From positions 1 through 62,584 of the forward strand of contig NMRA01001055.1 of assembly GCA_002633005.1 (NCBI GenBank): a DNA stretch of 62,584 bases, in the 5' to 3' direction. Shown one piece after another: positions 10,330-60,110 of the stretch (positions within the stretch are counted from its first letter, which is position 1; each line of letters begins with the position of its first letter). The notes under the pieces were generated by a model, which searched no databases, was not told the DNA's origin, and saw only the letters and a program-made list of their open reading frames with translations. The position numbers were made by a program, and so were the translations under genes. The stretch is from Phoronis australis. Lineage: Eukaryota > Animalia > Phoronida.

Positions 10330-10419
10330 GTTCTAAAATACGTTGAAGATGGTGATATTAAAGCTATCGAGAATGTTATTGACCAAGGACTCCACCTTGA
10401 CCAACAACTTGACAATTGT
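10330..10419 (+). CDS. Exon: N-terminal ankyrin cap-like segment VLKYVEDGDIKAIENVIDQGLHLDQQLDNC
   Basis: ttttcag acceptor, gtaagt donor, 90 nt, phase 0/0. Resembles a first ankyrin repeat (xxGDxxxVxxLIxxGxxxN) and joins in frame to GTTMLH of the next exon. Confidence 0.65.
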
Positions 10420-13400
10420 GTAAGTAGTACATCGGTTAATATTCCCTGTATCTCAAGTGAACTGGAAAATAATGCTTCTTTGCGACCGATGCCTTAAAAA
10501 TTAAATTAATTCATGTTGAATATTTAAGTATCGGCCATCTTAATTGTGAACCATGTCATTGCCATTACAAATAAGATTAGTGGTTTTCGTCCTAGTTACA
10601 ATCAAACACTTTCAAATTCAATCATTTGTTATTGCCTTTAACGTAATAGGTCTCCGATCACTTTGTGGAATTTGCACTTTCACAGAAAGGAAGTCTCAAA
10701 TGTTTCTCTCGGGCACCATCAATTAGGGAAAGAAGTTATGATTCTTTTAAAGCATTATTATGAATTCTATACCGAGCAAAACAGGACTATTTTCTATCAC
10801 TGAGTTTGAATGCCTTCCATAGATACTCGGTTCAGTCACAATCTAAAGCTCCTACAAATACACATGTTATGTGGGTTATATACTTCTGGACTGGTGTTTA
10901 CCTTCAGAACAACCAGATGCTTATTAGAATTGTTATAGTCAGTTTAATCCTTGCACAGACCTCAATCTATGAAGAGCTCGCAAAATTCCCGCTAAATCTT
11001 TTCTGCAGTGTAGGTCAAAGAAACAAAAAATTTGTCAGCAGTCCTGTCTAAGCACAGCCTACTCTAAAAGTACTTGCATGTTCGAACTCAGATGGCGTTG
11101 CTGACCCAAGGTTTCCTTTTACCATTGAGTATATTGGTTGTGTACAGGACATGTTGTCGCAGGATTTCGGAAATTGTACTAGCAACTGATAAGACAGTTG
11201 TGTTATTGACTTCTTCGTCAATACTTGTTTACAGCTTTGTAGCATTCAACAGCTGGAAGTTTTTATATCCAAGTTCTTTTACATACAACTGGTTTCAATC
11301 CCTGTGCGACAGAAACTAAGAGAATGTTCTTGCCAAAGTCACCTAAAGGTGGCGGAATCGGCATCAACAATTTCAGCCACTGATCCCACTTTGCGGTCAT
11401 AATTATCACTTTGGTTAACCATAGAACCCAAAGATGTCTTCAAACCGTTTTGTAACCATAATAATATATTATACGAGGAAGAGATAACCAGGAAGGGACA
11501 ACTGTTTTAGCGCATTTTAACGTGTTTTCAAAAGGGATTTCAAAAGTAAATGTTAAAGTCGTCTGACATCCAAGCATTGTGTTTGAAATCTTAGCTCCTT
11601 AGCTATAAAATGACACCACTTTGGTCCCCAAAGACTGCATATTAATTGCACTGGGATGCTTTGAACATGACTTCTTTACCCTTCCAAAAGATGCCTCTTC
11701 CCTGGCATGTACTCGGGCATGATCCTCTTTTTGGAACCAACAGATGTCACTAATATATGCAAATGAGGTTTGCATCTCCTACGTCATATGACGTCATACG
11801 ACGCGAACTTCCACTTTAAACACTCAGGTGCCTATAGTGAATGATTTGAAACGCAGTTCTACCTGATTGTTCAGATCTATGAAAATTAAGAACTCACACA
11901 AATCAACGTTCAAAGAACATTGAATGGTTTCACATAAAAATACATTTAATTGTATTTGGATACGCTTGCATGTGTGTAAGCGTGGAGTTTGTCATTCTGC
12001 TTAGAAACAGATTTAGAAGCAGGTGTAAGTCAAGAAATTAGCTGCTCCTGCCACGGTGGCCGGTGTCGTGGCGTCCGAGTCGCCGGGAAGTCTGATCCAT
12101 GCATGCGTAATTCGACGAACTAATGCTAGTCGCTGGTCAGCTCCGCTATGATTCATGCGCAATTCGACAAACTAATGCTAGTTGCTGGTCAGCTACGCTA
12201 TGATTCATTTGAGACGTGCGGCTTAACTCGAACCTATACCCGTGTCACTGGTTCCAAGGTGGTTTTCTTTGACTCAGTTTCGCGAATAGTTCCTTTTAAT
12301 ACGGCCATTTCCTGAAGATTTTTTGAAAGATAAGATCCCGAAATATAGAGCTGTATCAAAATTCATTGTTTAAACACAGCCACTGGTCCAGTTTCTGCCG
12401 CCGGGCGGCTGGGGAAAATGCTATGGAACGCGTGTCCCAAAAATGCACACACTTCAACTCCTGCAGTTCAAGTTCTTTTCCCGTCAATCACTGTGCGCGG
12501 ACTCTACGCGGGTAGCGTACTGCATGAATACACCTGATTTTTGACGTGGGTGCGTCACTGTGTTACAACGTGCCCAGTCTTTGCAGTATGCACGGGAATG
12601 TCAAGCAAACAATTCGGTTTAGAAGAACCTAAATTCTTTGCACAATACTACTGGGAACTGTGACAAGCATCAAGGAAATGCAAATACAATCTTTCCAAAT
12701 TGATGAACAATGACTTGAACTACTTTTTCGATCCGATCTACGGTTTGTAAATGTTTGAATTTCTTTAGTCTAGTTTTTAATTCAATAGATTCATGAATAT
12801 CACTGTTATCGTTTAGTGTCCTTCTTTGCGACATGGTGGTGTGATGATGGATCGAATTTTTGCAAGTCCGTCATTCAGCCTTCAACTATGTTCAGTTACG
12901 TATCGCAATTTCTTACAAGACAGCATCGATCTGTGCTGTGCACGAATGTTTTGTGTTTTTGATGAATTTGGAATCTCAACTTCCCCTCGTGAGTAGTTGG
13001 CAGTTTCATGTCGGAGGTGTATAAAGGGCGCAGCACTGAAAAAAGTGGGGGCTAAAGCCCCCTCAGCCCCCCCTGTAGTGCACCGCCTATGGACCACTGA
13101 AAAACTTGGACTGAATTAAAGGACAATGCATCCCGATTTAATTAGTCTTTTTTTGGCTTATTAATCGGTCTATATCCACATCGCCTCGCGCACGGTCGAC
13201 CTTACATTGCCAAGAGGTGTCGCGTTAACCTGTGAGGAAGGTGAGAAACGACGCTAGCGACGTCAATGGTTCATCTGCAGAGTGAATGCCGCTATGTTGC
13301 GGTGCATCCTTCCCGCTTGTGCGAGCTATGCACCTTCGAGGAAAGCAGGTATATCGTTTTTTCGACTTCCTCGAGAGTCCGAAATGTTTAGGAAGTGGAT

Positions 13401-16400
13401 TGCAGTAGTGAAGAATGAAAAGTACGCTGTAAATAGCAAGTATGAGGCCGTGGAACATCTCCTTGTCTGTGGCCTGCAGTCGTCGACAGCTGAGTGAGTG
13501 CCTGATGAATGCCAGCTTGCCAAAAAACTATCCCTACGTTCCGTTGTCTGAGCTTGTTCACGGCGCCTCTTTAGTAGTTCTTCATCACAGTATTCCTGTT
13601 CGAGCTGATAGCCTGTGAAACCTAACGATCCACCTGCGATGTCTTCGTCGGGATTGATGAGCTCTCGTCTAAGACGCGGGGGATTGCGAGTTGCCATGTT
13701 GACGTTTATTACTGAGCGTTCTGTTTCAAAATGAATTATTCTCACCCTAACCAATACTTATATGAAACTGAAACAAAGTCTGTCTCTTTAGATGCAATTT
13801 GTAATGGCTTTGGAGTGCTCCTGAGTGCAAATGATTTGAGAAGCCAGCAATATATAAATGAATGTGTTACCGGCTTTAGGTACAATAAAAATAATTGACG
13901 GGGACACCGAGGCCGTGTGAGCTCATGCTAATTTAGTGTTTGATGGCAGAAACTGTTGTGAAACAACTCGTTTTCCATCCCACGGCCAGGTGTTAGGGGA
14001 ATGTTTATTTATATTTATATTATTCAAATAATGATTGTCAATGTATAACTTCTGCCCTGACCATGTGCGCACCCAGGGGGGCTCGGGGCTTTGAACGAGG
14101 GCAAAGTGGCGAAATGGGAAAGAAGGTCCGCCTCTGGGAAACAAAAAGTCCGAGAAAATGAGACTAAAGTCCTCTAAATAAGCACAGTCGCGCAATTCAC
14201 AGTGGTGCCCCCGATTTTTTTAGCTCACCTGTTATTTTGTTACCAAAAGGTCCACAACGTCAGAAATTCGAGCCCCTCCCTCCATATTGAAAGCTGGGTG
14301 CGCGCATGCTGAGGGTGCTGTGGACAAAACGGAACATGAATTAGCGGCCCGACGAGTAAGTAGATTTGCAATTTCGTGGATAATTCACCAACATAATCAC
14401 GTGCACATTACTTTGGCTCACTCGTATAGTATTTTCCTGACTAGAAGTTTAGTTTCCTTCTTTGGCTGGTTTATGTTCGTGATGTCTGATCAGTTTCCGA
14501 GTCACTGGTCGGGATAACGAGTCAATCCGGCCGGCCGCGACGGGCCTGATCGGGCGAGCCACTGGCCAGGATAACGAGCGTTTTGCGTGTTTAGAACTTA
14601 AAAAATCACAGTTCTAAACAACACAGACTGGGTTCTGCTGTCCGTATCACACGGAAAAATACTTCGAATTTATCTCCGAACAGACCCCAAACTCCTGCTA
14701 CGGACCTTATTGGCTTGCCAAGCCGTTGTAGGCTACGGCCGTGTGCAAATACCAATGAAATCCGTAACAGAGAAATAAAACAACATGTTTTTATAAGAAC
14801 TCGTTGTATTTTTAAGGGTTTTACATCGAAGTTTGATGATTTATTGGTGTAAAACGATGAATTCAAGCGATAAGCTTACACCAGTAACCCGTGTTGTGAA
14901 CTGCTGAACAGACTGCGTGTGAAACCAATTACGTCATTGCATAATTTCAACACTTCCGTCTGCCGTCAGGTGTCAGGTAACGCAACCGTACGTGCCGTTA
15001 TGGAGTAGAATTGATCGATCTAAATTGATACAAATTGGGTTGTTTTTGGGTGGCATGCTCCTTCAATACGCTCCGCAAAATTGTTGCTTTACAAGTTTTC
15101 TCGAATTTTCGAAATACATGTATGAATGATTAAGTGCACATTTTCAAGAGCGCTTAGGTGACCTATGCTGCAAATACAGACACCCTAACGATAGTCCTGG
15201 TCAGGGCCCTCAAACGGTAAACCTTACATTGATACCGAGTTGTCAAAGTTCTCTTGAGCTTTCTCTCTGATCAGTATTCTTAGTCTTTCTTTTTCGTGTT
15301 TCCCCAGCCCTACACCTTTGTCGGTTGCCATGGTTTAACCCTGGGGCATGCAATTTTTTGGGGGTGGCACTCGCCCTCCCCCCCCCCGCTTACTAAAGTC
15401 CCGATGCAAGGAGTCCATCTTTGGTCCAAGGCCAATGTTGCGTTTCAACACGCACTCGTTGTATAGCTTGAGCATGAAATTTAAGGTTTAAGAAATACAG
15501 GAGCAGTTTTGCGCTTTTAATTGTGCGTGTAAAAGGGTTTATGGATTCGTACTGAATTTGTTGCTGCAACTTGTCTCATTGGCCTGTACCGGGCACGTGA
15601 GCACAAATGTGGACACTAATTCGGCTATTGCGCAAGTCGACTGTAGCAAAAAAGCCAGTGAAAATGTAAGGCAGCACCAGGCCAGTGGGCGTGTGTGACA
15701 ACTCGGATTTCTAGTCTCTTATTATGAAAACCATTGAAGGCAATTATCAGCACCTGCAAACAAGAATTTTGAAGTATGGAGAATTTCAACAGGAGTTAGC
15801 TGTAGACTTAGTTTTAAAGCTGCCGACATTCCAGCCACGGTGTCTGCCGGTCCTTTGAAGCAATTATAGCACATAATATACGAATTTTTAAGAATGGCAA
15901 GGGTGCGTTTTGTGTTGACGGAAATGTGCATGGCGTCAAGGAATCTGAGACATTTAATGATGTACAACTGTTGTCAATGGCTTCATTTGGAAAAAACACT
16001 TAGCAAAACTAACTTCCAAGTATGCATACTGTGACGGAATTAAGAAATACGATTATGGCAGTGCTAATTGTAGCAGAGGCACAAAGTGTGCTAAAATGGT
16101 AGAAAATGAGGCATAACATTTCTATAGAAGATAAAAGGTTGATTGGTGCAGGAGAAGGCCGATGTCTTCAATGCTCAGAAAAATTTCGGCAGGCAAGAGA
16201 CTTGCCAAGAAAATGGCACAGTCGAGTCCGGTCATTCTAAAGGAAAGAACTGCAGCCAATTCCAGTTATTCGGGGCAACTTCTCTCACCCGACGATGTTG
16301 TTTCACGATACCGCAACCTCAAACATCGTCAAAGAAACGAAATGCAGAAGGTGAGATATTACAGAGTATTAGTATTTATTCTTGAATACCGGTGTCCACC

Positions 16401-28400: not shown

Positions 28401-31400
28401 ATTTACTGAACAATCAGAAAAATAAGATTTTGGTAAAATGTGTTTAATCGTAATCTTATTTTCCAGCTTGCATTTTGTTCGATGTTATTGACTGTGTTTC
28501 CCTGAGCTTGTGTTTCTAATCATATCAATACACCATCCGCAAAAGATTGCCTTTATGATTTCTTCCCGAAACAACCTCAATCTTCAGTTGCATTTTGGTA
28601 AAAATCCCATCCAGATGTAACTATGTATTGCAAATCTCTTGTATTTTGTTCCTTACCCAAACTTCTTAGAAACGCTCCTTGGCCTCGGTGAAAACTGGCA
28701 TCCCCCTACTGTTTGTGCCTGGACTTCAAAAGTTTTATCATGGTTTTCAATTGATGTGGTCAACATGGGTTGGATTTGGGTAGACCTACAGTAGACACAA
28801 GGTTTTGGTGATTTATATTCAAAAGTGTTTTTTTCTTTTCAACGTTTTCGTGATTAGTAATTAAGATGTACGGTGAAGTAGTGATTGTGAAGTTTGCTAA
28901 TACATGTTTCTGTAGGGTACGACAATGCTGCACCGGGCAGTAGAGGCGGAGACTACGGAAGTGGCGAGCTTCCTGCTCTCCACTGGGGCCAACGTAGACG
29001 CGCGAGACGAGGTAATAGAAAATAGTTGAAAAGTTATCAGAATTAAAACGATAAAATCTTTGCTAAAGCTGTAGGCTGTCTGATGTTTAACTGAATATGT
29101 TGTGTGGAAATACAATTTAATATTACTCGACATTATCTGTACCTGATGCTTGCAGTAACATTGAGGTTTTGAAGCGTGTCAATAAGATATTCAGCGACTT
29201 AACATTGATGATTTTCTATTCGTAATGGCAATCGTCTAATCAATAGCACAACTTCCTATTGAACAAAAAGCCGGAAAACGATGTATAAACACAGCTAGGA
29301 GGGCCAGGGTCATGCTATGGAGGTGCTCACAAATTTCAAGCTGGCGAAGTTTGCAGCATGTTCTGTTCATTCCAAAGTCACACGAAACGCACGAGTGTTG
29401 AAATCTTAACAGTTATTGTAGCGTCGTAGGTGTGTTAGTAATTTATGCTTATCGTTGATAGACCATTAACCCACATCCATTATAGACAACACAGGGCGGT
29501 TGGACACCGCTCCACTGGGCAGCATTTTGCGGTAGTAAACGTATGGTGGATTTGCTACTAGCCAACAAGGCCACCGTAGATGTCGCTACTAAGGTAATTA
29601 ATGGAAAGTTGGTTGTTGATTTGAATAAGTTCTTGACACAACGATGCCTAAAGCTATTTTTAAATAGCTTAAAAGATCTTTTTCATTGTTATGTCTATAG
29701 TTTATGCTAAATTAAATGTCGTCTCCTATTGACTGTCATCTCATTTATGTATTCCATAGTTGGGCGAGACACCGCTGTGCAAGGCAGCACAGCGTGGTTG
29801 GGCACCCGTGGCAGAGAGTCTGCTCCAACAGGGAGCCAACGTGAATGTCATTATGAAGGTAACTAAAGACACACATGAAGTTTGTTTGAAGCAGTTGTTT
29901 CCACTACGATGATGAACACACAAAACTTGACTAGGCTGGTTTAAATGATTAGTAAACATTGATGATTTCGTTGTAAAAGTTGGAATTTCTTGTTGTACTC
30001 CAGGACTAATGACGTCACGTGCCCGTAAGTGAGTTGTGCACGACTTTAAAATCAGTTTTCACATCAAATTAACTTGGCTCTGTACTAAATTGCTTTTAAA
30101 CAACCCTCAAAAACTGAATGTAGCTCTGTAGACTAGCTGAAGTTTAACTAAATGTTTTCTGTGAAAACACACTTCATATTTCTGCTGAATTCGACATATG
30201 ATATTAAATATGTACTTGGTCCATGCATCTTAAGGAACAGGGAGGTTTTAATCGTGTCAACAAATATTTGTGAGCTTAACGTATATACTTTGCTGTGCTT
30301 AATGGTAATCTTCCACTCAACATTACAACTTTGACGACACAATGGTTTCTTATTTGAATCAGTTGTATGCACAACGATTACTAAAACTGTTTAAGACATT
30401 TCTCATAATCTATTGTTCCTAAACAACAGGATGGTTGGACACCGTTGCACTTTGCAGCAAGCTGCCGTAGTACAGAGATGGTGAGATTGTTACTGGATAA
30501 CAAAGCCACTGTAGATGTCACTACGGAGGTAATTAATGACACATAGTTTAATTGTTTGAATAAATTAACACAACTATGATTCAAGCTGTTTAATCTTATG
30601 TGCTTTGTAACGTCAAATTAAAGGTGATCTTCTTTTAATTGTCATCGCCATTATATTTTACCTTGTGGGGAGACCAAAGACAAAGCTGTGCAATGCAGTA
30701 GAGAGTGCTCATAAATATTGTAAATGAGTGGTACACTGTCTGATTCAACACTGGGCAAATGTGAATATCCATAAGTAGGTAATTAGTGACACACAAGTTG
30801 CTTGGTTGAGGTAGTTGTTTACACATTGACTATGAACGCATAACACATGACTAGGTTTAGAAAAAATAACTAGTCATCGTTTATCATTTGGTTGTAAACG
30901 TCGAAATTACATTTCTTGTTTCACTTCTTCACGCAAGCCGTCATGTTACTTGTGCAATACTGAGGAGTTTAGTGTGAAAAGTCCGCGGAGAGCTGCCTTT
31001 TCCAGACATAAAAGGATACTTTTGTTGAAGCTGCAGTAACAGCAACTTAACTGAGAACCTCTGTGTTCAAATATCCTAAGTAAGTAAAAGTTGCACTGAA
31101 ATTGCATCGGTTTGTGCACCCCAAGAGAAAGTGAAATGTCAGCAGTGTGGAACATGCGTTTGGTGCGCACCGCGGCCAAATCTGATGTTTTCTCTTTGTT
31201 AGAACCGGTTAACTGCTGCATTATTCTTAATACAGTCCCCTTTGATGACTTTGGGAAAGTTCATTTACAGCAACCAAAAATTTGGAAACTCCATCTCACC
31301 GAAGACTTCCGAATGGGCCTCCAAACCCAACAAAACTTAAAAGACCATAAAGTTGACATCGGTGGTCATGTTGTCTAGAAGTTTGTCATGCCCACGTGTT

Positions 31401-43400: not shown

Positions 43401-46400
43401 CTAATATTGTCATTGTCTTCTGACCTGCAGTGTTCCGACATTGCAGATGATTGTCAAGCGGCCAACCGTCTTCCACCCATTGCATCATTTGGCGGGAAAC
43501 TTAGAAATAAGTAATTTTTCTTCAAAATTAAAAAAGTTGCCACTATTTGACATAAAAGTGCCTATTTAGCAAGATTTTATGGTATTCGATTCATATTAGC
43601 TAACTGAAACCTGAAAAAGTAAGAAAATGCATGGTGGGAACTCTTTAAAACAGACCACTCGCTTTCATTTACTCGAGCTGCTTAAGCAGCAATTGGTATT
43701 GTCTGCAGTTTCAATACTTGTTGTAGACAGGCAACACTCCCCTGCACATAGCGTCTTCGTATGGCCGGCTAGAAGTTGCAGAACTTCTTATTAAAAATGA
43801 TGTTGATGCCACGGTTCTTAATCAGGTAAGATGACATGGTCAATATTTGTTATTCTACATGTGTCTATCTTTGATTTAGTGAAAGATATTACTGTGTATA
43901 ACGCCGCTGCAAAGCATTGGACATTTGTCAGTGGTGAGGTAACCAGTTATTCCCAATTACATAAAACAATATAATTTTATATGTAAACATTGTTGTTCGA
44001 ATGCTTGTGGAATTTATTACCAAAGTATTTGTATGTTATTTCTGGTATAATGGAACGTCAACTTTTATTGCTGATAAAGTCGTTTTTACTCGTCTCACAA
44101 CAAGAAGAATAAACACCAAACGACTTTTTACACGTAATTTTCAACGAATTTACAATAGTCATTTATGTTGCTGCCGGGTCTTATCGTGTACGCATGGTAA
44201 ATTTTGAGAATTGATAGTTAAAAGAAGTTATTCTTTGCAGTGAATATATCCAATCCATTCTACACTCTGTTCACCTTCTGTCTCTTATTTCTCATTTGAT
44301 TATACACGTAAGTATCCACACTGTATTCAAGTCAAGTGCTTCATAAAGTCCGTGCTTCAAGTAAATTCATATGAATTGAGTTAACCTGCTTAACCCGCAA
44401 GTTGGGCTCTCAATTCTTGTTTTGCAGAATTTGCAAACAGCTATCGATGTCATTGGCACTGAGTGTGACGTGTATTTGAACTATGTCGAACCTGAGATTC
44501 TCCAGCAAATAAGGATAATCCTGGAGGTATGTGGTGTTAAAAACGATGTTACCATGACAATATCACTGTTTATGTCATTCATGTCTTGATCGTCTTGTCA
44601 CTATCCCCATGATGAAGGAATTGTATTAACGTTTCCATTAATCATCGAACCTCCAAGAGCAGCACAACTCTGGTATGGGGTGTCTCACAGTAGGACATAC
44701 ATGTACACGTAGGAGTTACATGTACATGTATGTACTGTGAAAGCGTCAACGCTTAATATTAATTATGCCTATGTAAGACTCTATGTTGAACTTTCATGTT
44801 ATTCTGATTTGGGTTCCAAATTTTGCTCACACTGTAGTCACACACATTATTATGTTGCAGAGGTGACAAACACTTATATCTTCACGCCAGCATTAATGAA
44901 TGGGAATATTGTTGTGTTGTTTCCGTTGGTGGCGTTTAAGAGAAATCATAATTGCCACGCGTAAGGGAAAGTATTCTGTTTGAAACTCCTTGCAGACGGA
45001 GCAGTATTCAGGCTACATGATGAAACCAACAAATGTCATGCACAAAAACTAATAACGCTTCCTTACTGTATTTATTTTATAAACGTTTGAATGGTTATAA
45101 ATATAGATCTGGCGGGTTTGTGGTCTGTCAGTGCCACATATAACATTAATCAGCCCCCAGCTATACTCTAAATCAAGAATATGGTATACAACTGCTATTC
45201 CAAATTAACAATACGATACTGGCAGAGAAAACTTTAGAAACTAGTAAAGCAATAAACCCACAAAGCCTACTGGAATTACATCACAAAATATAATTTCACC
45301 TTCCCAAAGTAATTGTCCAAACAGATTTTACTCTTTCATCAAAAGTCTCAACAATGCATCACCAAATATTGCTCCTTAGAAAAAAGATGGCATCCTATCA
45401 AGTGACCTAAAAACAAAATCAGAAATATTAGACTCACACTTATCGTCGGTCTACACAAAGGACTATGGTACAGATAAACCTGGCAAGGGCACCACCCCCT
45501 ACAAATCCATGCATGATATATCCTTCTCCACTGACGGTACACGCAACAACTCTGAAATGGCTGAACCTCCTAGAAAGACGAGCTGAAAATAAACTGACCC
45601 TCCTGTACAAGACCGTACATAACCTGGTTGCTGTTCCGCAATCATACCTTCCACCCCAACACATCGCTAGATAACGTAAGTAACACTCGTATTACGCAAA
45701 CTCTGTCTTCCCCACTATTTGTTATCTCATCAGAAACAAAAGAGATGTTCACAGTTCCTATCTCGAATATCAATCTCACACAGTAAAACATTGTTTTTAA
45801 TTTGGCATTCAATTTAACCAGCTCTTTGTTTTGTTGTTATTTTCACAGTAATGCACACTTCAGTTGATTACTAACATGCACCAACATGTAAGGATCCATA
45901 TAACCATCGTTTTTCACAGTCGGGAAGAAGCAGAAAATGTAATACCCAACAGTTCAAGAATAACTCCAAGCGTATCAAATCTGAGACTCAAATGTTTTAT
46001 CTCGACAGCAATACGTTCACTAGTTACATTTGTTGACATCAAAACCAATACATACCATAAATATCATAAGATTTTTCTACTAGTACAATCAGTACTATCC
46101 ACGGCAAAGCGTGTATGAAGAAATGCGTCAATTGGCATCAACTAATGTGCTTGCACATAAGGCCCCTCGCAACATCATCAGAACGCTTCCATCAACTAAA
46201 AAGAGCAACTGTAGAGACAGAGTAATCTCATGGGAAAGATCAATCTAGAATGTTATTGTTTACATTCAAATCCAACACCATAACGAAACTCAATAATTTA
46301 TTCACATAAAAGGATAACGATTTGGATCAATGGCAGCAAATTGGTAGGTGTCCTATTTTTCTTGTACCCAATCATAGTGCTGTTTTTAGTTGATCTAAGC

Positions 46401-49400
46401 GTTCTGAAGATCTTGCAAGCGAACTTTTGAGCACGCGGTTTAGTTGATGCCAGTTGGTACATTTTGGGATGTACGATTTGCCGTGAATATTGAGCTAGGA
46501 AATCTGGAGGTATTTCTGGAATTTATTGTTTTCCATGTCATCAAATGTTGCCAGTGAACATGCTGCAGTCGCATAAAAAATGTGGCGCCCGGCCATATTA
46601 AATAGCAGTTGTATATCAGTCTAATTATCTTAGTACATCGTTGAGGGCTGATAAAGGTGCCTGTGGTCAGGGCATAGGTGGTCGCATTACTATTCCGCAG
46701 ACAACGTAGTTACATGTTTGTGAGAAAGTATTATATTATACGTTTAAAGAAAATTCGTTCTCATATCCAGCATGAAGACGCCGCGGCCGATGAGGTAGAG
46801 AATGTTTTGTTAGCAGCACTGAACGGTTATTTGAAGTCAAAAGCCAAAGCCATACCTGATGGTGTGTTAAACGTGGTTGTTCAAGTAAACAGGAAAGACG
46901 ACGGGACAATGGAACTTCTGAAAGTGGATCTTAATCCAAAGGGTATTTTTATGCCGACTTTTACTGTCACTGCTCGAGGAACTCTAGGGAAATCGTCATG
47001 TTTGATTTCCATTAACAAACCCACTCGCCTTATCACAAGTACTGCATTCAGTTTCATAAAGCATATGACAATGCATCCCTATATTCTGTACTTTTTCGGA
47101 TGTTAGTTATCATTCAATCCTTTCATGACCTGGGCCCGGTCTCCAATCTCCGTACTCAGACTTATACTCATACTCGAGATTTCATACTCAAAATCGTGCT
47201 CACTGGAGTCGTACTCAAAAAAGCGTATCTAATGTCGTATTTCGAGTAGACTCCAAACGTACTCAAATCTGACACTCATACTCGAGTTGCTATGGAACTC
47301 TTTATGATGTGAAATGCAAAGCCGCGCTGATTCATCGCTCCCTGTTGGAATAGACCACTCCAAGAACTAGGCCTACATTATCGTCTGCTGTCGCTACAAC
47401 TACAACAGTATGTCTATAACGTGGAATTCTGAGTGTTCTGTAACTGTTATTCATTTTTTTTAGTTTCAATAAATATTCTTATACCATTTCTTTGATACAT
47501 TTGGCATTTATTAAGCTTTACTTCTTGAGTTCCTCACCCAGTCCCGAAAATGTCTTAAGAAATATGTAACGGCTGATCACATCACATCTCTGTTGCTAAT
47601 TTAGTCTTGACATAAAACCCATTACTGTGTAGGCCTACGCTGATGTCAAACTTTGATACTGTATCTTTGTATTTTACCGGGAAGTATTAAGTGAGTTAAC
47701 ATTTGGCACGTGAGTTAAAAAACATTACTTGTGCAGGCATTCAGAGTTCACCAGTGGCAGTGAACGGTGCGAGACTTCTACTTAGAAATCGGCAAACAAA
47801 ATCTGGAATTTCATTTGGGGATTGAGGAATTATAGATGACTAAGTTATGATGAGAAATGTATCTGATAGGGAAGCGAACTGTTTTTAACTTGCCTCGTCT
47901 TTTGGAAACCCTACAAAACGTAGGCACACATACCGAAATAAGGGCAGCACAAAATTCTCACACGACTTTTCCCACAACTGCTTTCGACGCTTGTTATGAC
48001 TCGCCGAGAAGGGATTACAATGCGCCTGTTGCCAGGAAATGTAGAGGTAGNNNNNNGCTGAGATACGGTAAGAGGACTTATTTTTTTAGATTTGCTGTGT
48101 TTCTTGGTTCCCTTTCGATATTTTGTTCTCTGGCTCGTATTTATTTTCGAGTACGATTTCAAGCACACTGCCATAGCAAACTTGAAATTTGAGCATAGAC
48201 TCCGAATTTTTACTCAAAATTGTACTCGAAATATAGATGAGATACACTTCAGTTCGAGTACACTCGAAAACTGAGTACGTGCTCAAAATTTCGAGTACAG
48301 ATTTTTCGAGTATGACATTGAATACACCAAAGCTGAGTCTGTACTAGAGTTGAGTATGTAGTGTGAGTTTGAGCATGATTCGAGTCGTAGTACGGAGATC
48401 GGAGACCGGGCCCTGGTGTGTGGTTTTTTCACACCAAAATATCAAGGATAAGTTGGCAATTTTTGCTAACTTAAATCAACCTTTCTCCCTTGAACTCGGC
48501 TCCCAGGACCTCGATTGTTTCTATAACATTAAGGTAACCCTAACAAATCAACAATACCATTATGGCACATTGCTTGAAGCAAAGACAAACATAAACTAGT
48601 ATCCATGGGAATGTTCAAACTCTGACTACTGCAAGACAGGCTGTTTTACCTGTAAGCGAACAACATGGGCATACACCAAGTGAAACTGTTATTAGAAACA
48701 CATGTGAGAGCGAACTCCATACTGACGTGACTTCCAGGGACTGCTTTGCACGATATACATGTACTTGTAACCGTCGGTTATCAGCTTTTACAAGATTGTA
48801 TGTGATGTGCTTACCCTTCCGCGTAGGGTAATTTTATGTCATTGTTGCAAGTTAGTTTGGCAGTCGTTTATTATACATGTATATTTCACATCTTGCCTAC
48901 TGAGAATGGGTGTGCTTAGCCTGTGTAAATATTTACCAACAAAGACTTGCTCAAGAGTGCTAAAAACAATTCAAATTTCGTCTTCATTTCAAGTCAGAGC
49001 ATTTGTTTTGCAATGTTTATATGAAAATCATCGTGGGTGATTTTCCCGTGACTTTACAAACATATGTGTCTACATTTAAGTTTTTAATGTCAGTACCTGA
49101 TTATTTTCCGAAGTGTTGGGATTTGAAATGAAGAAATATAATTTAGGTCAAACACGTCCGTTCACCGCAATTCAAAACCTGAATGATAAAATCCGTTTTG
49201 GAACGTTCAAAGTGCAGGTATCTTTTTCACACTACCTTTAAACTAACGCACGGAACAACCCAGCTGACGTATTTTGGAAAATAGTCCTGATGCGTTGTGC
49301 TTGTTAATTTAATTCTGGGGAGAAACTTCATTGAGGACCCAGTCAGTGCCATCTTCAGGCAGTGCCGTCTTTCTAAGCCATGCATCACTAAGTTTCCTTC

Positions 49401-52400
49401 TGAGACCAAAGAGTAACTTTGAAGTCTGCCTTGGTCACGGTTTTTTAAACATTCTAAACACAATACCATGATCCAGGCAGGCCTCAAAATCACTCTTTTG
49501 GTCTCGGGAGAAACTTACATATAGCAAATATTGGTTTAGAAACAAGATACTGTATCAAACTTTTTTCATTTTCAGATAACCCTCCTTCCTTTGTACCAGT
49601 GAACCAATCACGCGACAGCGTTATTTCAGTTCACCTCCACAAATCTCTGGCCGATGGAATATCTTCAGTAGTTTTACTTTCACGGCCAGACAGAGGTCCT
49701 GTGGGGACTGGCTTCCGAGTGGGTTCCAAATACGTGATGACGAACTATCACGTGTACGCAATGCTGTGTCAAGAATTCTCCAGTAAGTACAGTCTACGTC
49801 GATAGTCGGTTGACTGACGTAGTGAAATGTACAAATGCAGAGCATATTAGGGGGCGTGAGGGGAAAAAGACTGCGCCTTCTGATTCGAGGAAATTTTTGG
49901 GTTACGGGAAGAAATTACCCTACTCTCCGGTCACCATCGGTAGCACTCCCACTCAGCTTTTGCAAACATCCATAGGCTCTGCCTTAAATAACATGATGCC
50001 TCTAACACGTGTTGTTGCAAATCATCGCCTGAACGAGTTAAAAGTGATTTGAGCCGGCATGGGAAGTTTTATCAGTTAAGGGGACGTTTTGGACTTCATG
50101 AATAGAGTTACGCCGAAGTTCAGAAATATATGGTGTAGCGCGACATGTACTCTCATACGTTCACGGAAGTGCGTAACGACTGCGGTTGTAGTTGTGAGTA
50201 TTTATATTTTTCGCGGTAATAACCAGTTTCAACCATAGCTAGTTATTGGCAGAAATACGACGCATGTTATCGATTTACTGAACAAACAACTCCGTTTCAT
50301 GCAGTGTGACGTTAACAATCCGTGAAACAGCGACATGTACTCTCATACGTTCACGGAAGTGCGTAACGACTGCGGTTGTAGTTGTGAGTATTTTTATTTT
50401 TCGCGGTAATAACCAGTTTCAACCATAGCTAGTTATTGGCAGAAATACGACGGATGTTATCGATTTACTGAACAAACAACTCCGTTTCATGCAGTGTGAC
50501 GTTAACAATCCGTGAAACAGTTACCATTAAAGCTCGCGAAGGTCTGGTTTTGCGAGACTTTTTTCATGTAATTGAGTATTGTAATACGTCGTCGTTACCC
50601 TAATAAACAGGGTACGGATTTTTTATTTCACTATCAAACAACGTTTGCATAAAAATTGGAATTATTTAGGTTTTCTATAAGTTCACCATTCTTTTTACGT
50701 GTATCAGTTGCGTTTCTTTTTAAACCGTAATTTGTTTACAAATACCTTTTTTCATGACCATTTCTGTTCGAACTGTTCTACAGGCAGTCGTCTCATTAAA
50801 TCATAGGTTGATAGTGTTGTAAATTAAAACTGAAAATAGAAGTACACATTGTTTTTTTCAACACACTATTTCACGATTGTTTTCAAAAGAATAAAATATT
50901 CGTGAATTAGTTGCTGAAGTAACTGTTTGGTCTGTCATAGTTTTGTCCACATCTGCCCATATCAAATGTATTCTGTACATCTTTGCAGGCAGAACAGGCT
51001 TAGCTATCTTCAACTTTGACAGAGGTGTCGAGCCATGTTTTCAGAATATTTCTGCCGTACCCATCGGCGCAGTGGTAGCCTACGATGAAGCACTTGACGT
51101 GGCTGTATTGGAACTAGATTTATATTCGCCACTTCCATCAGCATTTACCCACTTCAAACAGATGTCCACACTCCCGCCACCTTTGACAATGTTCAAGGCT
51201 CTAACACATGAACGCATCTTGCATTTTTGTGGACAACCAGACGGTGGTTCGAAAGTTATCAACTTACAGTGTCCTGTTGTCTCCATGGAACCCAGCGATT
51301 TTCAGAAAACGGTAAAGATATCTTAATTTCATGTCAAATAGTCACGTGTTTCTGCATCATCTGTTAAGTGGCTGCACAGCAAAACCATTCATAGTGAAGT
51401 AACTGTCGGTTTCTTTTACAAGTCAAGTCAATAACCCATTCGCAACTTCTTCAACCAAAAAATAAAACTCACAATCAATCTCAAATTACATGTAAGCAAT
51501 TGGTCAGTGAAAATAATGAAGCGGCTCCAAATAAAATTACTCAAGATCGTAAATCTCGTGAGCCTCAACGTGCAGTCAGCCTGCTCTTTTCCGTCAACTC
51601 GCAAGGCCGCCAACCTTCATGTATATGTTCCCATCGACCTACACAAACGTCAACTTACAGCCTCCGTCTACTTACACGCTCTCTATCACCTACAGCCCCA
51701 TACTTTAACTTCTTGATGTCTGTGGCATTGAACTTAAAGATGATTAAGCCGTTCACCGTCTAGAAGTCCATGCCATTTAACTTCAAGAAGTCTGTGATAT
51801 TCAGCTTGGAGAAATCTGTGACATTCAACACTTCTCCCAAAAACTCGATTGGCTTTTGTTTTGCTTTATAACCTATTGGCTTTGCCCTTTTCAGACGGCA
51901 CCCCAGTTCTTCATGACAATTATATTACACATGTACTAATGAACCGTTTTGTTCAGTTTGGTTTTTATAATATCAGTTAAAACATGCCTCTTATGGAAAC
52001 AGGCCAATAGGAAATGGTTCCTCAAATTTCCAAACCATGAGTTTTGATAAAACATGTCATCGTATTTCACACCTCCAATTTCAAAAACATAAAACTACTT
52101 TAAAATCTTTTACAACCGTACGCAATGTGATTTGTTTCTATACTTTCTTCAATCACCACATGCTGGGCTCTTAAGTTCAACACGCCCATTGTCATTAAAA
52201 GGCTCTGTGGATCGGTCCTTACAAGTGGAATATAGTGTGCTGTTATGTTTCTGATTGTTTGCGAGGTATCATCGAATAGTCTTCGTTTTAGCAAATGATC
52301 ATTAACTTTGTTGGCTTCAACTCGGTATATTTTTCTGGAAGAGTATCTGTTGAATGTGATTTTCATCTCAACAATATTTGACAGTAATTGGTGCTTTAGT

Positions 52401-54851
52401 AAACTTTTGTAAGCAGGAACATTTACAACGTTCATGTAGCAGAATCTTCATTAACTCAATGGATTTTTTATTTATTTGCCTCAAACTGATTTGAGTTGTG
52501 ATGTGTTTCATCACTTCTAAAACCTATTGGTCCACTTAAACCAAGCGCTACCCTATTAACATACATTTGTACATAAAGACGCTGTAAATAGACCAAGGGA
52601 TTACCGAAATGGTTTTCACCAAACCATGGAAACAAATACTTCTTTTACACTCTCACCAGTCGTGTTCATGAATAGAAATCATTGTTTTCAATGCACGAAT
52701 AGATTGAAAACAGAAGGTATTTATCAGCAAGGAGACATTCGTGTGTTATGGGTCCCACGGGATTTGCCTGAATTCAGACATTTCTACGGTAAAATCTCTT
52801 GCTTCGCTTGCGACACCTCGTGAATCTCAGTTGCTTTGCCTACCTCAACACTTGTCACATTCGATCGAAAACACCATGCAGTTTTACTTAATTACACCTA
52901 AAGTTGCCGATACTATCGTTTCCTAAACAAGCAGGTCAATCATAAACATACTGGAAGTAACAAAACTAAGTTTTAGTTGCATATTTTAATAACTAATGAA
53001 AAGTGCACCTGATTACAAATTTTCGGAAATTTGGCAACTGATGTGACTTTTGGAAAATTAAAGATGTCTTTTATGTCTCATTAATAATTTCCCACTCTAA
53101 TTCTGCCGGGCGTGCATCATAAATGGGTCAATTATCGACCCACCACACAGAGTTGTATTTTCATGTAAGCCAAGTCTCTTCGGGCAATTCTTAACATAAT
53201 ATCAACTTTTTCTAGAACATGATTTTGATTTTATTGCATGCAAATAAAGTTTTTTTTCATAAATTCACAGAAAGCTTGTTTTTGATATTCATCAATTGGA
53301 AACAGGAGTGAATCCAGAATTGGCAAGTTAGGGGATCTTAGGGCACTGTATTAGCCTGGATTTGTTCGCCAAACATTCTCACCCTCGTACTGCCAAATGG
53401 AATCCATTCCCCCCTTCGCCCCTTCTTAAATCTGCCACTGGGAACACTAAATAAAACAATTCCTAATATCGTTTTGGAAACAATTGAATGAGGGTATAGT
53501 ACGTAAACGTTTCGTATAAATCCGCTTAGCTATTTCCTTGCTGTTCTTAAGTTACCTGAAATTGGATACGGTTACATCTCCTTAAACTTCTCAGTAAAGA
53601 GGAACACTATTCCCAGATGGCTTTGTGCTGTGACTCCATTTCATCATTTAACCATGATAGGGTGCAACAGAGTTTTTCTTACTTGTTTGATATAGCCTCA
53701 AGCATTTGGTATTCGAAATGTCCCCGCATTTTATGTTATATATTTTAAAAAATATTCAGAATTAGATATTTATGGCTTCCTAATAAGCTATAAACGTATT
53801 GAAAAATAGCGAGTTGGATCTGCTTTCTGCTTTGTTAGCCTATCACAAGCACCAAAAGCATGAAGGTGTGAAACTTTTTCAACCTGGCTATAATACGTTG
53901 AATACATTTCCAAACAGTTTCTTTGTATGGTGAGACATATTATTTCGTAGAAAGAACATGGACAATAATCAGTGAATGTTTGAGGAATAGCTCCAGCTCG
54001 ATTCAACTTAATATGTCTTTTATTGAGAACTTTTAAGTCGAAAAATATTTTTATTTCTTAATTTTTCATCGACCCCTTATTATGTATCCTGCCGTAGTTA
54101 GGTTTTATGATTGTCCCCAGATTACACCCTACCCGTTTCTCTGGTATTTACTGAGGACATACATGCGTGTACGTGGATAGTATCGTGTTTTGTTCTTTGT
54201 TAGTCATGATAATTTTAGCATTGTCCGTACCACAATGATCAAATATCTGTTCAGTGATGTGGAATAAATAAACCCCGATGAACTGATGTATTTTGTTGTT
54301 ATGTCTATAATCAAACATCAATATATTTTGGCTGCTTGACAAAGAACTAATCGTCCCAAAGCAGTTTCCAGATCCTACCACTACTATATGTAACATATGT
54401 AGAACCAATTATTTCAACTGCTTGGTTTACTAGATACAGTGCCTAAGGTTCACTCACAGATTTCTGTCTTAACTGCAATCGTGACAAGGTGGTTCACGTT
54501 TACTCATTTCAGTTTTCTGACCTCAAGCAGTGGGCTCGCCAAAACTTTCCTCCATGGCATGATGCATTCCCAGGAATAGACGACTCACGGCGAATACTTT
54601 ACAGAACCAATTTAGCCATGTGCACCTCCGGAAGTCCAGGTTTTGTACGCAACGACCAAGAAGAGGCATGCGTGGCTGTGATACACACACGTGGATTTCC
54701 GTGTGTTCCGTCAGGTCATCATGTGCCTGCAGAGCAAATCAAGTGTCGTGCTGTTGAGCAAGGTGTTAGAATAGAGGCAGTTTATGATTTCCTATTGTCG
54801 AAACACCCAGCATTATGCCAAGATATTTTTCGTGATGTTAGACCAACTTAG
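10330..54851 (+). CDS. Spliced gene (5' partial): ankyrin-repeat protein fused to a FAM111-like trypsin-fold serine protease. Exons 10330-10419, 28916-29011, 29495-29593, 29760-29858, 30430-30528, 43727-43825, 44428-44526, 46771-46942, 49576-49782, 50989-51311, 54513-54851
   Basis: All 11 exons have AG acceptors and the first 10 have GT donors. Intron phases are 0 x7, 1, 1, 0. The joined length is 1722 nt (573 aa plus stop) with no internal stop. Ankyrin GxTPLHxA motifs are followed by GTGFRV..MTNYHV (His), LDVAVLEL (Asp) and TSGSPG (Ser). Linking exon 10330 to the rest across an 18.5-kb intron is inferred. Confidence 0.85.
12102..12207. repeat. 52-bp tandem duplication, 2 copies
   Basis: catgcg(t/c)aattcgac(g/a)aactaatgctag... 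at 12102 and 12154. Confidence 0.9.
13117..13790. mobile_element. Internally deleted Kolobok-like element: THAP 5' fragment on + (13294-13497) converging on a KolX/P2X7-ballast-like 5' fragment on - (ATG 13697)
   Basis: TTAA|AGGACA left end. + strand: MLRCILPAC..FFRLP..FRKWIAVV..LVCGL (THAP). - strand: YQLEQEYCDEEL...SWHSSG resembles YxFEPEYxxEE...WCxCG. Right end not found. Confidence 0.6.
14062..14308. mobile_element. MITE with CATG(T/C)GCGCACCCAG TIRs and 5-bp TSD (CTGAC/CTGAG)
   Basis: catgtgcgcacccag ... ctgggtgcgcgcatg with near-identical 5-bp flanks. Confidence 0.75.
17330..19084 (+). mobile_element. P-like TIR element with a decayed THAP fragment (~17420-17530)
   Basis: atagaccctattcacgc at 17330-17346 versus gcgtgaatagagtctat at 19068-19084 (1 mismatch). 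A frameshifted HSL-KDV*IRKRWVVAIRR resembles the THAP motif FPKD..RKxWxxAIRR. No TSD is visible. Confidence 0.6.
17658..17936. mobile_element. Second copy of the 4534-4837 family; left tip lost, CTACG on both sides
   Basis: Shared internal blocks (gggggtgaat, gtttacc, ttttagg.tgggcgcgc); ends ctggatccgcccatg|ctacg. Confidence 0.7.
19451..21325. mobile_element. Non-autonomous TIR element copy 1 (spans an N gap), 5-bp TSD TTGTG/TAGTG
   Basis: cataggcggatttagg ... cctagatccgccactg; aligns with 27250-28251. Confidence 0.8.
22676..22826. repeat. Imperfect palindrome with a 22-bp core stem
   Basis: ggattttggagaagtatcgccc (22720-22741) pairs with gggcgatgattctccaaaatcc (22760-22781) with 2 mismatches; outer arms ttattacatg / catgtaataa. 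Confidence 0.85.
25440..25830 (+). mobile_element. Penelope-like retroelement 3' remnant: GIY-YIG endonuclease plus hammerhead-like tail
   Basis: Frameshifted TYVGEIKR...FKEHK...VGEH...GHSV...KVKESI...PILTRD, followed by ccgacaa-stem-gaaacgtc at 25778-25811. Confidence 0.7.
26200..26450 (-). mobile_element. Possible Academ-type transposase remnant
   Basis: The - strand frame VGELATDRDEAGTRMFTH resembles the LxxxHEEADTRxxxH motif; short and decayed. Confidence 0.35.
27250..28251. mobile_element. Non-autonomous TIR element copy 2 (spans an N gap), perfect 5-bp TSD AACTA
   Basis: aacta|cataggcggatttagg ... cctagatccgccactg|aacta. Confidence 0.85.
28916..29011 (+). CDS. Ankyrin repeat exon GTTMLHRAVEAETTEVASFLLSTGANVDARDE
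   Basis: ttctgtag acceptor, gtaata donor, 96 nt, matches ankyrin consensus. Confidence 0.92.
29495..29593 (+). CDS. Ankyrin repeat exon GGWTPLHWAAFCGSKRMVDLLLANKATVDVATK
   Basis: acacag acceptor, gtaatt donor, 99 nt, TPLH motif. Confidence 0.93.
29760..29858 (+). CDS. Ankyrin repeat exon LGETPLCKAAQRGWAPVAESLLQQGANVNVIMK
   Basis: ttccatag acceptor, gtaact donor, 99 nt, ankyrin consensus. Confidence 0.92.
30430..30528 (+). CDS. Ankyrin repeat exon DGWTPLHFAASCRSTEMVRLLLDNKATVDVTTE
   Basis: caacag acceptor, gtaatt donor, 99 nt; clear paralog of 29495-29593. Confidence 0.92.
30667..30778 (+). pseudogene. Ankyrin pseudo-exon, decayed counterpart of exon 29760-29858
   Basis: Reads TKLCNAVESAHKYCK*VVHCLIQHWANVNIHK* then gtaatt. 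It has two stops and no good acceptor. The downstream intron sequence aligns with 29859-29990. Confidence 0.75.
36579..40023 (-). mobile_element. Sola3-like DNA transposon inserted at TTAA
   Basis: ttaa|gagtgactccatataaaaacca ... tggtttttatatggactgcctc|ttaa. GAG/CTC ends with a TTAA TSD are the Sola3 signature. Confidence 0.8.
37990..38905 (-). pseudogene. Transposase C-terminal remnant of the nested element
   Basis: SGNAGCYHS...RYDFSESQNGKDLCDR (DDD-type core), then FPCTQQG, RFSVKVKNFLTNIFDEG and SQIGGFF; disrupted. Confidence 0.75.
43727..43825 (+). CDS. Ankyrin repeat exon TGNTPLHIASSYGRLEVAELLIKNDVDATVLNQ
   Basis: ttgttgtag acceptor, gtaaga donor, 99 nt, TPLH motif. Confidence 0.93.
44428..44526 (+). 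CDS. C-terminal ankyrin cap exon NLQTAIDVIGTECDVYLNYVEPEILQQIRIILE
   Basis: tttgcag acceptor, gtatgt donor, 99 nt; TAxD...IxxxL capping-repeat pattern. Confidence 0.85.
45330..45730 (+). mobile_element. Internally deleted LINE ORF2 remnant (CR1/L2-like)
   Basis: KTKSEILDSHLSSVYTK joined to LKWLNLLERR..LTLLYKTVHNLVAV..YL and YANSVFP; the RT core is missing. Confidence 0.65.
46771..46942 (+). CDS. Linker exon HEDAAADEVENVLLAALNGYLKSKAKAIPDGVLNVVVQVNRKDDGTMELLKVDLNPK
   Basis: atatccag acceptor, G/gtattt donor. It supplies the phase 0-to-1 change needed to join the ankyrin and protease exons. Confidence 0.75.
47133..48412 (+). mobile_element. PIF/Harbinger-like non-autonomous element copy A, TSD CTG
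   Basis: ctg|ggcccggtctccaatctccgtact ... agtacggagatcggagaccgggcc|ctg; subterminal (t)actc/gagt(a) repeats. Confidence 0.88.
49576..49782 (+). CDS. Protease exon 1 (catalytic His, codon 49749-49751)
   Basis: ttttcag acceptor, gtaagt donor; encodes SSVVLL...GTGFRVGSKYVMTNYHV, typical of Trypsin_2-type proteases. Confidence 0.9.
50141..50520. repeat. 190-bp tandem duplication (50141-50330, 50331-50520)
   Basis: Units identical except for about 2 substitutions seen by eye. Confidence 0.95.
50989..51311 (+). CDS. Protease exon 2 (catalytic Asp, codon 51096-51098)
   Basis: ctttgcag acceptor, gtaaag donor; encodes AIFNFD, DEALDVAVLEL and HFCGQPDGGSK (compare the FAM111 IIGHPxGxxK motif). Confidence 0.9.
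51711..51830. repeat. Degenerate 24-bp tandem repeat, 5 units
   Basis: Units start at 51711, 51735, 51759, 51783 and 51807; consensus about TCNAGAAGTCTGTGNCATTCAACT. Confidence 0.75.
53303..53440. mobile_element. Old short CA...TG element, 5-bp TSD GGAAA/GGAAC
   Basis: caggagtgaatccag ... aaatctgccactg. Confidence 0.55.
54513..54851 (+). CDS. Protease exon 3, terminal (catalytic Ser, codon 54627-54629)
   Basis: atttcag acceptor; encodes ILYRTNLAMCTSGSPG...VIHTRGF...VEQGVRIEAV then TAG. Parallels FAM111-type SGSPV...HxxGF...IEFG motifs. Confidence 0.9.
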   Translation, partial: FSDLKQWARQNFPPWHDAFPGIDDSRRILYRTNLAMCTSGSPGFVRNDQEEACVAVIHTRGFPCVPSGHHVPAEQIKCRAVEQGVRIEAVYDFLLSKHPALCQDIFRDVRPT

Positions 54852-57734: not shown

Positions 57735-58116
57735 TATGGGCATACAGTTTACATGTAACTCCAAGAGCGGGAAGGAAATCATTTATACCGGTGTTGTGAC
57801 TTTATTGTTGGTGAACTAAAATTCGTCTAAAGCATCGTATACGCCAAACTATTTTATCTCATCCTGTCTAAAATGTTGCCCATAGCACTTCTGTTCACAT
57901 AATTTAACAAAGCAGTATACAAAAGTAAATAAACCAGTTTCAGTTTTATTAAAATCTCAGCTAAAGCAGGAATGGGAATGTATTCTCAAAATATAAGACG
58001 CATGTACACAATTGTTATGCCTAACAATGTTGACCAGTAGCTACTGCATATCACCTGAAATACATTGATATTAGTGTAAACAAGTAAATCTTGTTGCTTT
58101 TCAAACACAACACCAG

Positions 58117-59500: not shown

Positions 59501-60110
59501 CTCAACTACATGTACCTGTAGACATACACACAGATTGGGCAACCGGGGCAGATGGGATGTCGCGGCGTGGCTTTTCCCTGCCGTGTAAGACATTTTTTTT
59601 GTTTTAGTAGACAAAAATGTAATTCCCACCACCCTGAAAAGTTTGCAGCAGTTAACATACCTAAATGTTCCTTAAGATGATTTAAATCCAGTCTCAATTT
59701 CGTCTCATAAACTCGACTTATAACTTCCGTAAAACCGTACTTTGCACATCTTTATATGAGACACTGTACTACCAACATTTCCCCACTGACTCAAATAAAT
59801 CACTTTTCAGGCCTTCTATCGCTTTTTCCTCTTCTTACACGACTTTGTGTTCCAACTAGCAAGAGCATTACTCAGATCTAGGTCACTCTGGGACATCCTA
59901 AATGTTCGAAATATTGTCTTTTATAGTTTCTCATCTCGTTACAATTATTGTCAAACCATGCGAGTCTACATGTTATATTTACATACCTGTCTCGCTTCAT
60001 GAGCACGGCCATTTCACTTGACTGGAGAAAGTCTAATAAGCTTTTGAAACTATCATTTATATCATCACCTCACAATTTTTTCGGTACTTATCATTTCCCT
60101 TACAAAAATG

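Follow-up and report, generated by a model that had tools for sequence, protein, structure and literature searches.

Eleven exons encoding an ankyrin-repeat array followed by a trypsin-fold protease, probably FAM111-like: a candidate intracellular defence factor

FAM111A is a replication-fork protease that also restricts poxvirus and SV40 mutants. What directs and activates this protease is, to our knowledge, only partly understood. FAM111A is an antiviral protease that acts at replication obstacles (PMC9798293, PMC10920703). It becomes active when it dimerises via the helix in front of the barrel, an event that orders the oxyanion loop, and it possesses a narrow cleft that suits linkers and disordered substrates (PMC10920703). 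FAM111 proteins of the vertebrate type contain two UBL domains, plus a PIP box in placental FAM111A, and a review describes FAM111A-like proteins of two invertebrates, Branchiostoma (A0A6P4ZC58) and Paramuricea (A0A7D9LSX1), that have Trypsin_2 with an intact triad and lack UBL and PIP; restriction is proposed there as the older role of FAM111 (PMC9798293). Another source concerns vertebrate UBL domains only (PMC10551639). On the bacterial side, trypsin-fold proteases are combined with EADs, the effector-associated domains of counter-invader systems, and marine invertebrates are documented to have joined ankyrins to immune effectors by lineage-specific shuffling (PMC8195603).

Within the window analysed here, that is, the whole 62.6 kb stretch of Phoronis australis DNA, which is AT-rich (about 38% GC), is eukaryotic in its introns and its transposons and includes 5 runs of N, eleven exons distributed over 44 kb encode an ankyrin array followed by a trypsin-fold protease (Table 1). 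Five ankyrin exons were detected on the + strand by a motif scan combined with a small profile. When joined, the exons comprise 1722 nt, namely, 573 codons and a TAG, with no internal stops; AG is found at each of the 11 acceptors and GT at each of the 10 donors, and the phases are compatible throughout. The first-pass annotation, which had proposed 11 phase-compatible exons yielding an uninterrupted 573-aa frame, was thus correct in the count, the length and the coordinates, and it was also right that the ankyrin half is missing from the list of open reading frames, because these exons are only 90-99 nt long. The order of domains that it had put forward, an ankyrin array, a linker and a trypsin fold with His, Asp and Ser, agrees with the Pfam Ank matches, the bacterial protease profile and the co-folding described below; of the Pfam families that it had expected, the ankyrin family was found, in scans of single exons, on exons 2-6, whereas Trypsin_2 appeared on exon 9 alone (E 0.027).

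Table 1. Exons of the ankyrin-protease gene and an inactivated exon copy (positions refer to the window)
Feature	Positions	Strand	Description
Exon 1	10330..10419	+	30 aa, phase 0-0; strong acceptor, GTAAGT donor; no Pfam match; 18.5 kb before exon 2
Exon 2, ankyrin repeat	28916..29011	+	32 aa; Pfam Ank 26.5 bits, E 7e-6
Exon 3, ankyrin repeat	29495..29593	+	33 aa; Pfam Ank 36.7 bits
Exon 4, ankyrin repeat	29760..29858	+	33 aa; Pfam Ank 28.0 bits
Exon 5, ankyrin repeat	30430..30528	+	33 aa; Pfam Ank 38.9 bits; duplicate of exon 3
Dead duplicate of exon 4, outside the frame	30660..30780 (approximate)	+	acceptor lost, insertions, in-frame stop
Exon 6, ankyrin repeat	43727..43825	+	33 aa; Pfam Ank 36.4 bits; one-stranded reads
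Exon 7	44428..44526	+	33 aa, 99 nt, phase 0-0; strong donor; no Pfam match
Exon 8, linker	46771..46942	+	57 aa; predicted helix and beta-hairpin; no family match
Exon 9, pre-protease helix and first strands	49576..49782	+	catalytic His343 at 49749-49751
Exon 10, start of second barrel	50989..51311	+	catalytic Asp390 at 51096-51098
Exon 11, C-terminal helices, stop TAG	54513..54851	+	catalytic Ser500 at 54627-54629; Cys498 at 54621-54623

Stretches of the same lengths placed at random positions of the window would all be free of stops with a joint probability of ~6e-14, a value that is overstated given that the exons had been chosen, so that tests of content, i.e., domain matches, weigh more. 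The strength of the acceptors is moderate in 6 of the 11 exons (13-35% of AG sites outscore them), and other splice sites close by also preserve the frame, so a few boundaries may move by some codons. The 573-aa frame lacks a start codon: exon 1 is an internal phase-0 exon that begins at an acceptor, and a search of the window for a convincing upstream first exon that would fit it found none. One upstream candidate (~3164-3260, with an acceptor, an ATG and a donor) was rejected because it ends in phase 1 and thereby brings a stop into exon 1; this exon-like stretch may belong to another transcript or precede an unseen intermediate exon. Exons could also hide in the two N gaps, of 918 and 406 nt, that lie inside intron 1, where two related repeats (71%; 19451-19886 and 27250-27730) each run into one of the large gaps.

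Several other repeats and mobile elements were observed in the window. Two copies of a non-coding element of 1.3-1.4 kb (47128-48417, in intron 8, and 58115-59502) are 93% alike, have terminal inverted repeats of 33-35 nt and are densely covered by RNA reads in both directions; the element is likely to be a non-autonomous DNA transposon. Intron 5 harbors nested transposon remnants (35369-41961), with broken transposase-like frames between repeated ends and a weak match to the hAT dimerisation domain (41016-41348, E 0.01), and two elements whose ends are inverted, at 36575-40027 and 37045-39549, break into these remnants. Inside a nested element, an open frame of 105 codons on the minus strand (38603-38917) has no Pfam match and presumably resembles an uncharacterised protein that recurs in the genomes of marine invertebrates. 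In intron 1, a THAP domain (13258-13494, Pfam E 6e-7) is located in a GC-richer stretch (12-18 kb) and is likely to be a remnant of a P-element-type transposon. In addition, there is a 28-nt minisatellite with about 23 copies (1017-1645) and, in intron 9, a near-perfect tandem duplication of 190 nt (50140-50520).

The ankyrin half has a regular organization, with one repeat per exon, in phase 0. Exons 2-6, i.e., 5 of the 11, passed the Pfam Ank family (PF00023) with 26.5-38.9 bits against a cut-off of 21.1, and exons 1, 7, 8, 10 and 11, scanned singly, matched no Pfam family. Judging by length, phase and position, exon 1 is likely to be the N-terminal capping half-repeat of the array, and exon 7 likely is a degenerate C-terminal capping repeat. 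The stretch that contains exons 3 and 4 has been duplicated in tandem (29491-29987 versus 30426-30908, ~500 nt at 66%): the copy of exon 3 survives as exon 5, with 74% DNA identity, and the copy of exon 4 is dead. Thus, duplication of exons has both added repeats to the array and cost it repeats.

The linker encoded by exon 8 was modelled by AlphaFold2 as a helix (residues 3-25) followed by a hairpin (33-56), with a pLDDT of 77. Foldseek retrieved no fold match for this model at E <= 0.001, and comparison of the exon with Pfam, NCBIfam and PADLOC yielded no family match. The exon is coding, as indicated by the codon-position pattern of diverged RNA reads: among the listed read differences, 5 of 6 fall on third codon positions and 3 of 6 are silent. 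It has an acceptor, at 46771, of moderate strength, and no start codon of its own.

Taken one at a time, the protease exons are too short and too diverged for direct searches. For the analysis of the protease, bacterial relatives were collected starting from weak tblastn matches of exon 9 (4 of 12 were fetched, all of them proteases), which led to 80 loci. The profile built from 81 bacterial protease domains matched the joined C-terminal half with 37.3 bits, covering positions 22-236 of 243, compared with 3.8 bits for the best of 1000 shuffled sequences (448 of which were reported by HMMER). Exons 9, 10 and 11 are ordered correctly along this profile, exons 10 and 11 alone scoring 0.8 and 11.5 bits, respectively, and the score of exon 9 being circular because the seed proteins had been found through it; His343, Asp390 and Ser500 fall on the triad columns. 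In the Atlas features, exons 10 and 11 lie near the Trypsin and Trypsin_2 clusters (0.91-0.93). The peptides of exons 9, 10 and 11, supplied as three separate chains, co-fold with an ipSAE of 0.79, versus 0.01 for the best of 3 controls; contact agreement between the runs was at least 81%, the partner pLDDT at least 65, and the catalytic His, Asp and Ser were among the confident interface residues. In calibration, 51 of 78 solved complexes and 2 of 108 mismatched pairs attained the mark applied to such predictions, although this job differs from the calibration set, and fragments of one known fold tend to score well through their likeness to solved structures; the co-folding therefore supports the fold and the set of exons rather than activity or splicing. 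An AlphaFold2 model of exon 11 alone (pLDDT 40) was left out. No second copy of the protease was found in the window.

One position of the active site is unusual in this copy. The glycine of the oxyanion hole, two residues before the catalytic Ser, which corresponds to Gly539 of FAM111A (PMC10920703) and is kept in 79 of the 79 bacterial domains that have the motif, is replaced by Cys498. Because the oxyanion hole is formed by backbone amides (PMC10920703), the side chain of the cysteine need not abolish activity. This copy may be less active than its paralogs.

The first-pass annotation had described the protease as FAM111-like. In support of this, FAM111A is the best-matching eukaryotic solved structure for profiles of this class, but its rank among the PDB matches varies from 1 to 26 depending on the profile. 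A 57-row profile, of which 54 rows are bacterial, matched FAM111A with E 1e-16 at rank 7, SplB and V8 scoring better and HTRA1 worse; with another profile dominated by bacterial sequences, FAM111A ranked 26, and with a profile of the N-terminal half, run only with the window rows included, it ranked 2, with SplE ahead. When part of exon 11 was added to three bacterial C-terminal halves, the score of FAM111A increased from 27.2 to 30.8 bits and its rank improved from 5 to 1, and the same addition lowered the score of SplB from 30.4 to 27.7 bits. Exons 9, 10 and 11, compared singly with the PDB, had no significant match, FAM111A included. The protein from the window and human FAM111A (PDB 8S9K, 8S9L) share a Trypsin_2-class fold with the triad, a helix ahead of the barrel and the C-terminal location of the protease, as well as the motifs E-x-L-D-x-A-V-L, H-x-x-G-[HQ]-P-x-G-x-x-K-x-I, H-x-x-G-F and E-x-G-x-x-x-E. 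With the caveat that the shared motifs were picked after both sequences had been seen and that the bacterial set is a single subfamily, neither P-x-G-x-x-K-x-I-[DN] nor E-x-L-D-x-A-V-L-x-L is found in any of the 81 bacterial domains or the 120 bacterial proteins; H-x-x-G-F and E-x-G-x-x-x-E-x-[IV] are likewise missing from the domains and are found in 1 and 3 of the proteins, respectively, and H-x-x-G-[HQ]-P is found in a single domain but in 24 of the whole proteins. One further FAM111A motif that was tried had no match in the window protein.

There are also differences from FAM111A. An ankyrin array and a helix-hairpin linker occupy the place of the PIP and the two UBL domains: there is no PIP-like motif in the 573-aa protein and no detectable UBL, residues 1-227 being of the ankyrin type and exon 8 a helix and a hairpin, although the unseen 5' end could carry additional domains. 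The spacing of the triad is 47/110, compared with 54/102 in FAM111A, and the motifs on the His side are of the bacterial type (GTGF and TNxHV, versus ATCF and TCRHV in human FAM111A). In addition to the Cys at the Gly539 site, the window protein lacks Phe536-538, which line the S1 pocket in FAM111A, so that its specificity is likely to differ. The segment that aligns with the dimerisation helix of FAM111A is present; it is also common to the bacterial EAD-trypsins. The passages that describe the Branchiostoma and Paramuricea proteins do not mention ankyrins (PMC9798293).

The bacterial relatives carry EAD1, EAD8 or EAD11 adaptors (PF19955, PF19961, PF19964 + PF13365), and their entire protease domain, including the pre-barrel helix, aligns with that of the window protein; in both, a swappable N-terminal interaction module precedes a C-terminal protease. 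The module itself is different, a small EAD adaptor in the bacteria and a repeat array here: no EAD domain was matched by any exon of the window, and a profile made from the window exons detected no ankyrin in the 80 loci or the 120 proteins. Furthermore, the QHPxG motif, found in 77 of 81 bacterial domains, and the NEG motif are absent from the window protein, and the best pairwise score is only 25 bits. The staphylococcal V8/Spl proteases (S1B; PDB 2VID, 1QY6, 5MM8) belong to the same broad structural class and are the top PDB matches of the bacterial profiles; they differ in being secreted, single-domain proteins, and their matches are shorter and lose score once exon 11 of the window is added. 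As for NAL1-like proteases, there was no Nal1 match in Pfam (in single-exon scans, which are insensitive) and no NAL1 chain among the listed PDB matches. Taken by sequence, the protease would be placed among FAM111A, the bacterial EAD-trypsins and V8/Spl and leans to FAM111A, and we consider its membership in the FAM111 clade probable.

Searches of the databases retrieved no animal homolog, be it from the protein sets, the metagenomes or by profiles. Among longer proteins, neither the 36 candidates for exon 11 nor the 16 for exon 9 included a homolog; a metagenome scan with exon 11 gave 128 pattern matches, 0 of which were confirmed; and among the best 120 of the 4182 matches to a profile of exon 11 and three bacterial halves, there was no ankyrin family, those with names being prokaryotic. 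The HMMER search with exon 10 against 1.84 billion representatives returned 2 matches, both rejected as repeat-protein artefacts; similarly, a plasmid tblastn match to exon 10 (H1) was dismissed as a chance match in a non-coding frame, and those to exon 11 as noise. NCBIfam contributed only weak matches to the MarP protease (E 0.019 and 0.2), and PADLOC and Rfam had no matches. Ankyrins and trypsin-fold proteases are each common. No description of an ankyrin-FAM111 fusion and no statement of a kinship between FAM111 and the EAD-trypsins was found in the full-text literature searched, which consisted mostly of titles and the beginnings of abstracts and did not extend to subscription journals; an uncharacterised ankyrin + Trypsin_2 entry may exist in domain-architecture databases such as InterPro.

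Expression was assessed with three raw-read RNA runs from one study, of which ~18-19% each was read, and one set of contigs, all labelled with the same species; the mapping spanned exons 6-11. At 80% likeness, reads that were wholly or mainly one-stranded occurred in the bins of exons 6, 8, 9, 10 and 11. The depth of first-mate-minus reads in the three runs was 0.65/0.61/1.91 for exon 6, 2.5/0.93/2.24 for exon 8, 3.6/2.6/19.8 for exon 9, 1.1/3.4/4.1 for exon 10 and 13.5/11.3/68.2 for exon 11, compared with a depth of at most 0.47 in the opposite direction, except for about 1 in the exon 10 bin of two runs; this direction fits RNA from the + strand, provided that the libraries were made by the common stranded protocol. 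Exons 6, 9, 10 and 11 all have their highest depth in the same run. Exon 7 has a depth of 0, with no reads at either 80% or 90% likeness in 4 of 4 runs. At 90% likeness, exons 7 and 9 have a depth of 0 in their bins, the depth for exons 10-11 does not exceed 1.1, and no exon junctions were seen. At least 2 different contigs map to exon 11, and the consensus of 218 loose-end reads before 54622, which represents a diverged copy, has Gly where this copy has Cys498. Diverged copies are, then, expressed far above this copy, which likely is weakly expressed, and they are more likely to be paralogs than alleles. Of the two junctions that had been proposed for checking, the region of 46942/49576 is bridged by one contig, which joins 46930 in exon 8 to 49701 in exon 9, is defined by these two sides only and comes from a diverged copy and from a run that is merely presumed to be RNA, whereas 44526/46771 has no reads; in these data, no read or contig spans this junction, 43825/44428 or any other link from the ankyrins to the protease.

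The best reading of these observations is that the window encodes one of several lineage-specific paralogs that make up a family of FAM111-like proteases, intracellular, targeted by ankyrins and likely defensive, in other words, one spliced gene in which the ankyrins would aim or switch on the protease, likely in defence against invaders; we assign this a probability of roughly 0.5. A single transcript, a cytosolic or nuclear location, activation in the manner of FAM111A and a role in conflicts are all parts that we infer. Most likely, the groove of the ankyrin array would bind a protein and either deliver it to the active site or cluster the protease domains into an active state. Activation would proceed as in FAM111A, with pairing via the helix ahead of the barrel ordering the oxyanion loop, and binding by the ankyrins could serve as the trigger or determine the location. 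The layout of one phase-0 repeat per exon would allow the binding surface to change through duplication and loss of exons. The protein may be cytosolic or nuclear, given that no membrane span is found in the known 573 aa, although a signal peptide is possible since the N-terminus is missing. The defensive role is suggested by the relatives, which are conflict or antiviral proteases, by the turnover of the paralogs and by the changeable binding array.

One alternative is that two neighbouring genes are present, one encoding only ankyrins (exons 1-7) and the other the linker and the protease (exons 8-11), with the first exons of the latter located elsewhere or unrecognised. The unseen junction between ankyrins and linker, the lack of reads on exon 7 and the moderate acceptor at 46771 would be compatible with such a split, and exon 7 could end a separate gene, since its frame, continued across the donor, meets a stop after 20 codons and AATAAA signals lie at 45251 and 45588. 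However, the strong phase-0 donor of exon 7 fits the phase of exon 8, 2.2 kb away, exon 8 itself contains no start codon, and the reads of exon 6 match those of the protease exons in direction and in the run where they peak; with an identity of only 39-49% between exon 6 and the remaining ankyrin exons of the gene, generic ankyrin genes are an unlikely source of these reads. We regard two genes as unlikely, and from the phase match, the strength of the donor, the lack of another source of exon 8 and the exon 6 reads, it appears highly probable that the ankyrins through the protease are on one transcript.

Even with a single gene, its product might be a fading or catalytically weak paralog, such as a decoy, a pseudo-protease or a young pseudogene, the working members of the family being encoded elsewhere in the genome. 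The Cys at the Gly539-equivalent site, where the 218-read consensus of the diverged copy has Gly, the scarcity of near-identical reads, the abundance of transposon remnants in the introns and the dead exon all point in this direction; on the other hand, all 11 exons are free of stops, with AG/GT ends and the triad intact, the Cys may leave activity, since backbone amides make the oxyanion hole (PMC10920703), and the expression sample is only three raw-read runs from one study, so that we consider this decidedly unlikely. Equally improbable, in our estimate, is that the gene encodes a protease which the ankyrins target to housekeeping or developmental tasks, such as clearing proteins bound to chromatin or the nuclear pore, as FAM111A/B do, and which has no immune role. 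Such a job would be in keeping with the generic nature of ankyrins as binding modules and with the action of FAM111A at replication obstacles (PMC9798293, PMC10920703), but the protein has no PIP motif, no conserved ortholog is detectable in very large protein sets and copies within the species are only 80-90% alike, both of which fit fast turnover better than a conserved job, and the older role proposed for FAM111 is restriction (PMC9798293).

Returning to the reading of a single ankyrin-targeted, likely defensive protease, the match of the EAD-trypsins to FAM111A (E 1e-16, with the pre-barrel helix region included) suggests a link between these proteases. A more far-reaching version, which we offer tentatively and consider doubtful, is that such proteins would be undescribed one-piece immune sensors of invertebrates, in which exon-shuffled ankyrins read an invader protein and fire a FAM111-type protease that is kin to the EAD-trypsins, perhaps representing an ancestral, receptor-coupled FAM111 that preceded the fork role in vertebrates. 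If true, a FAM111-like protease with its own variable array would be a natural test of the idea that restriction came first.
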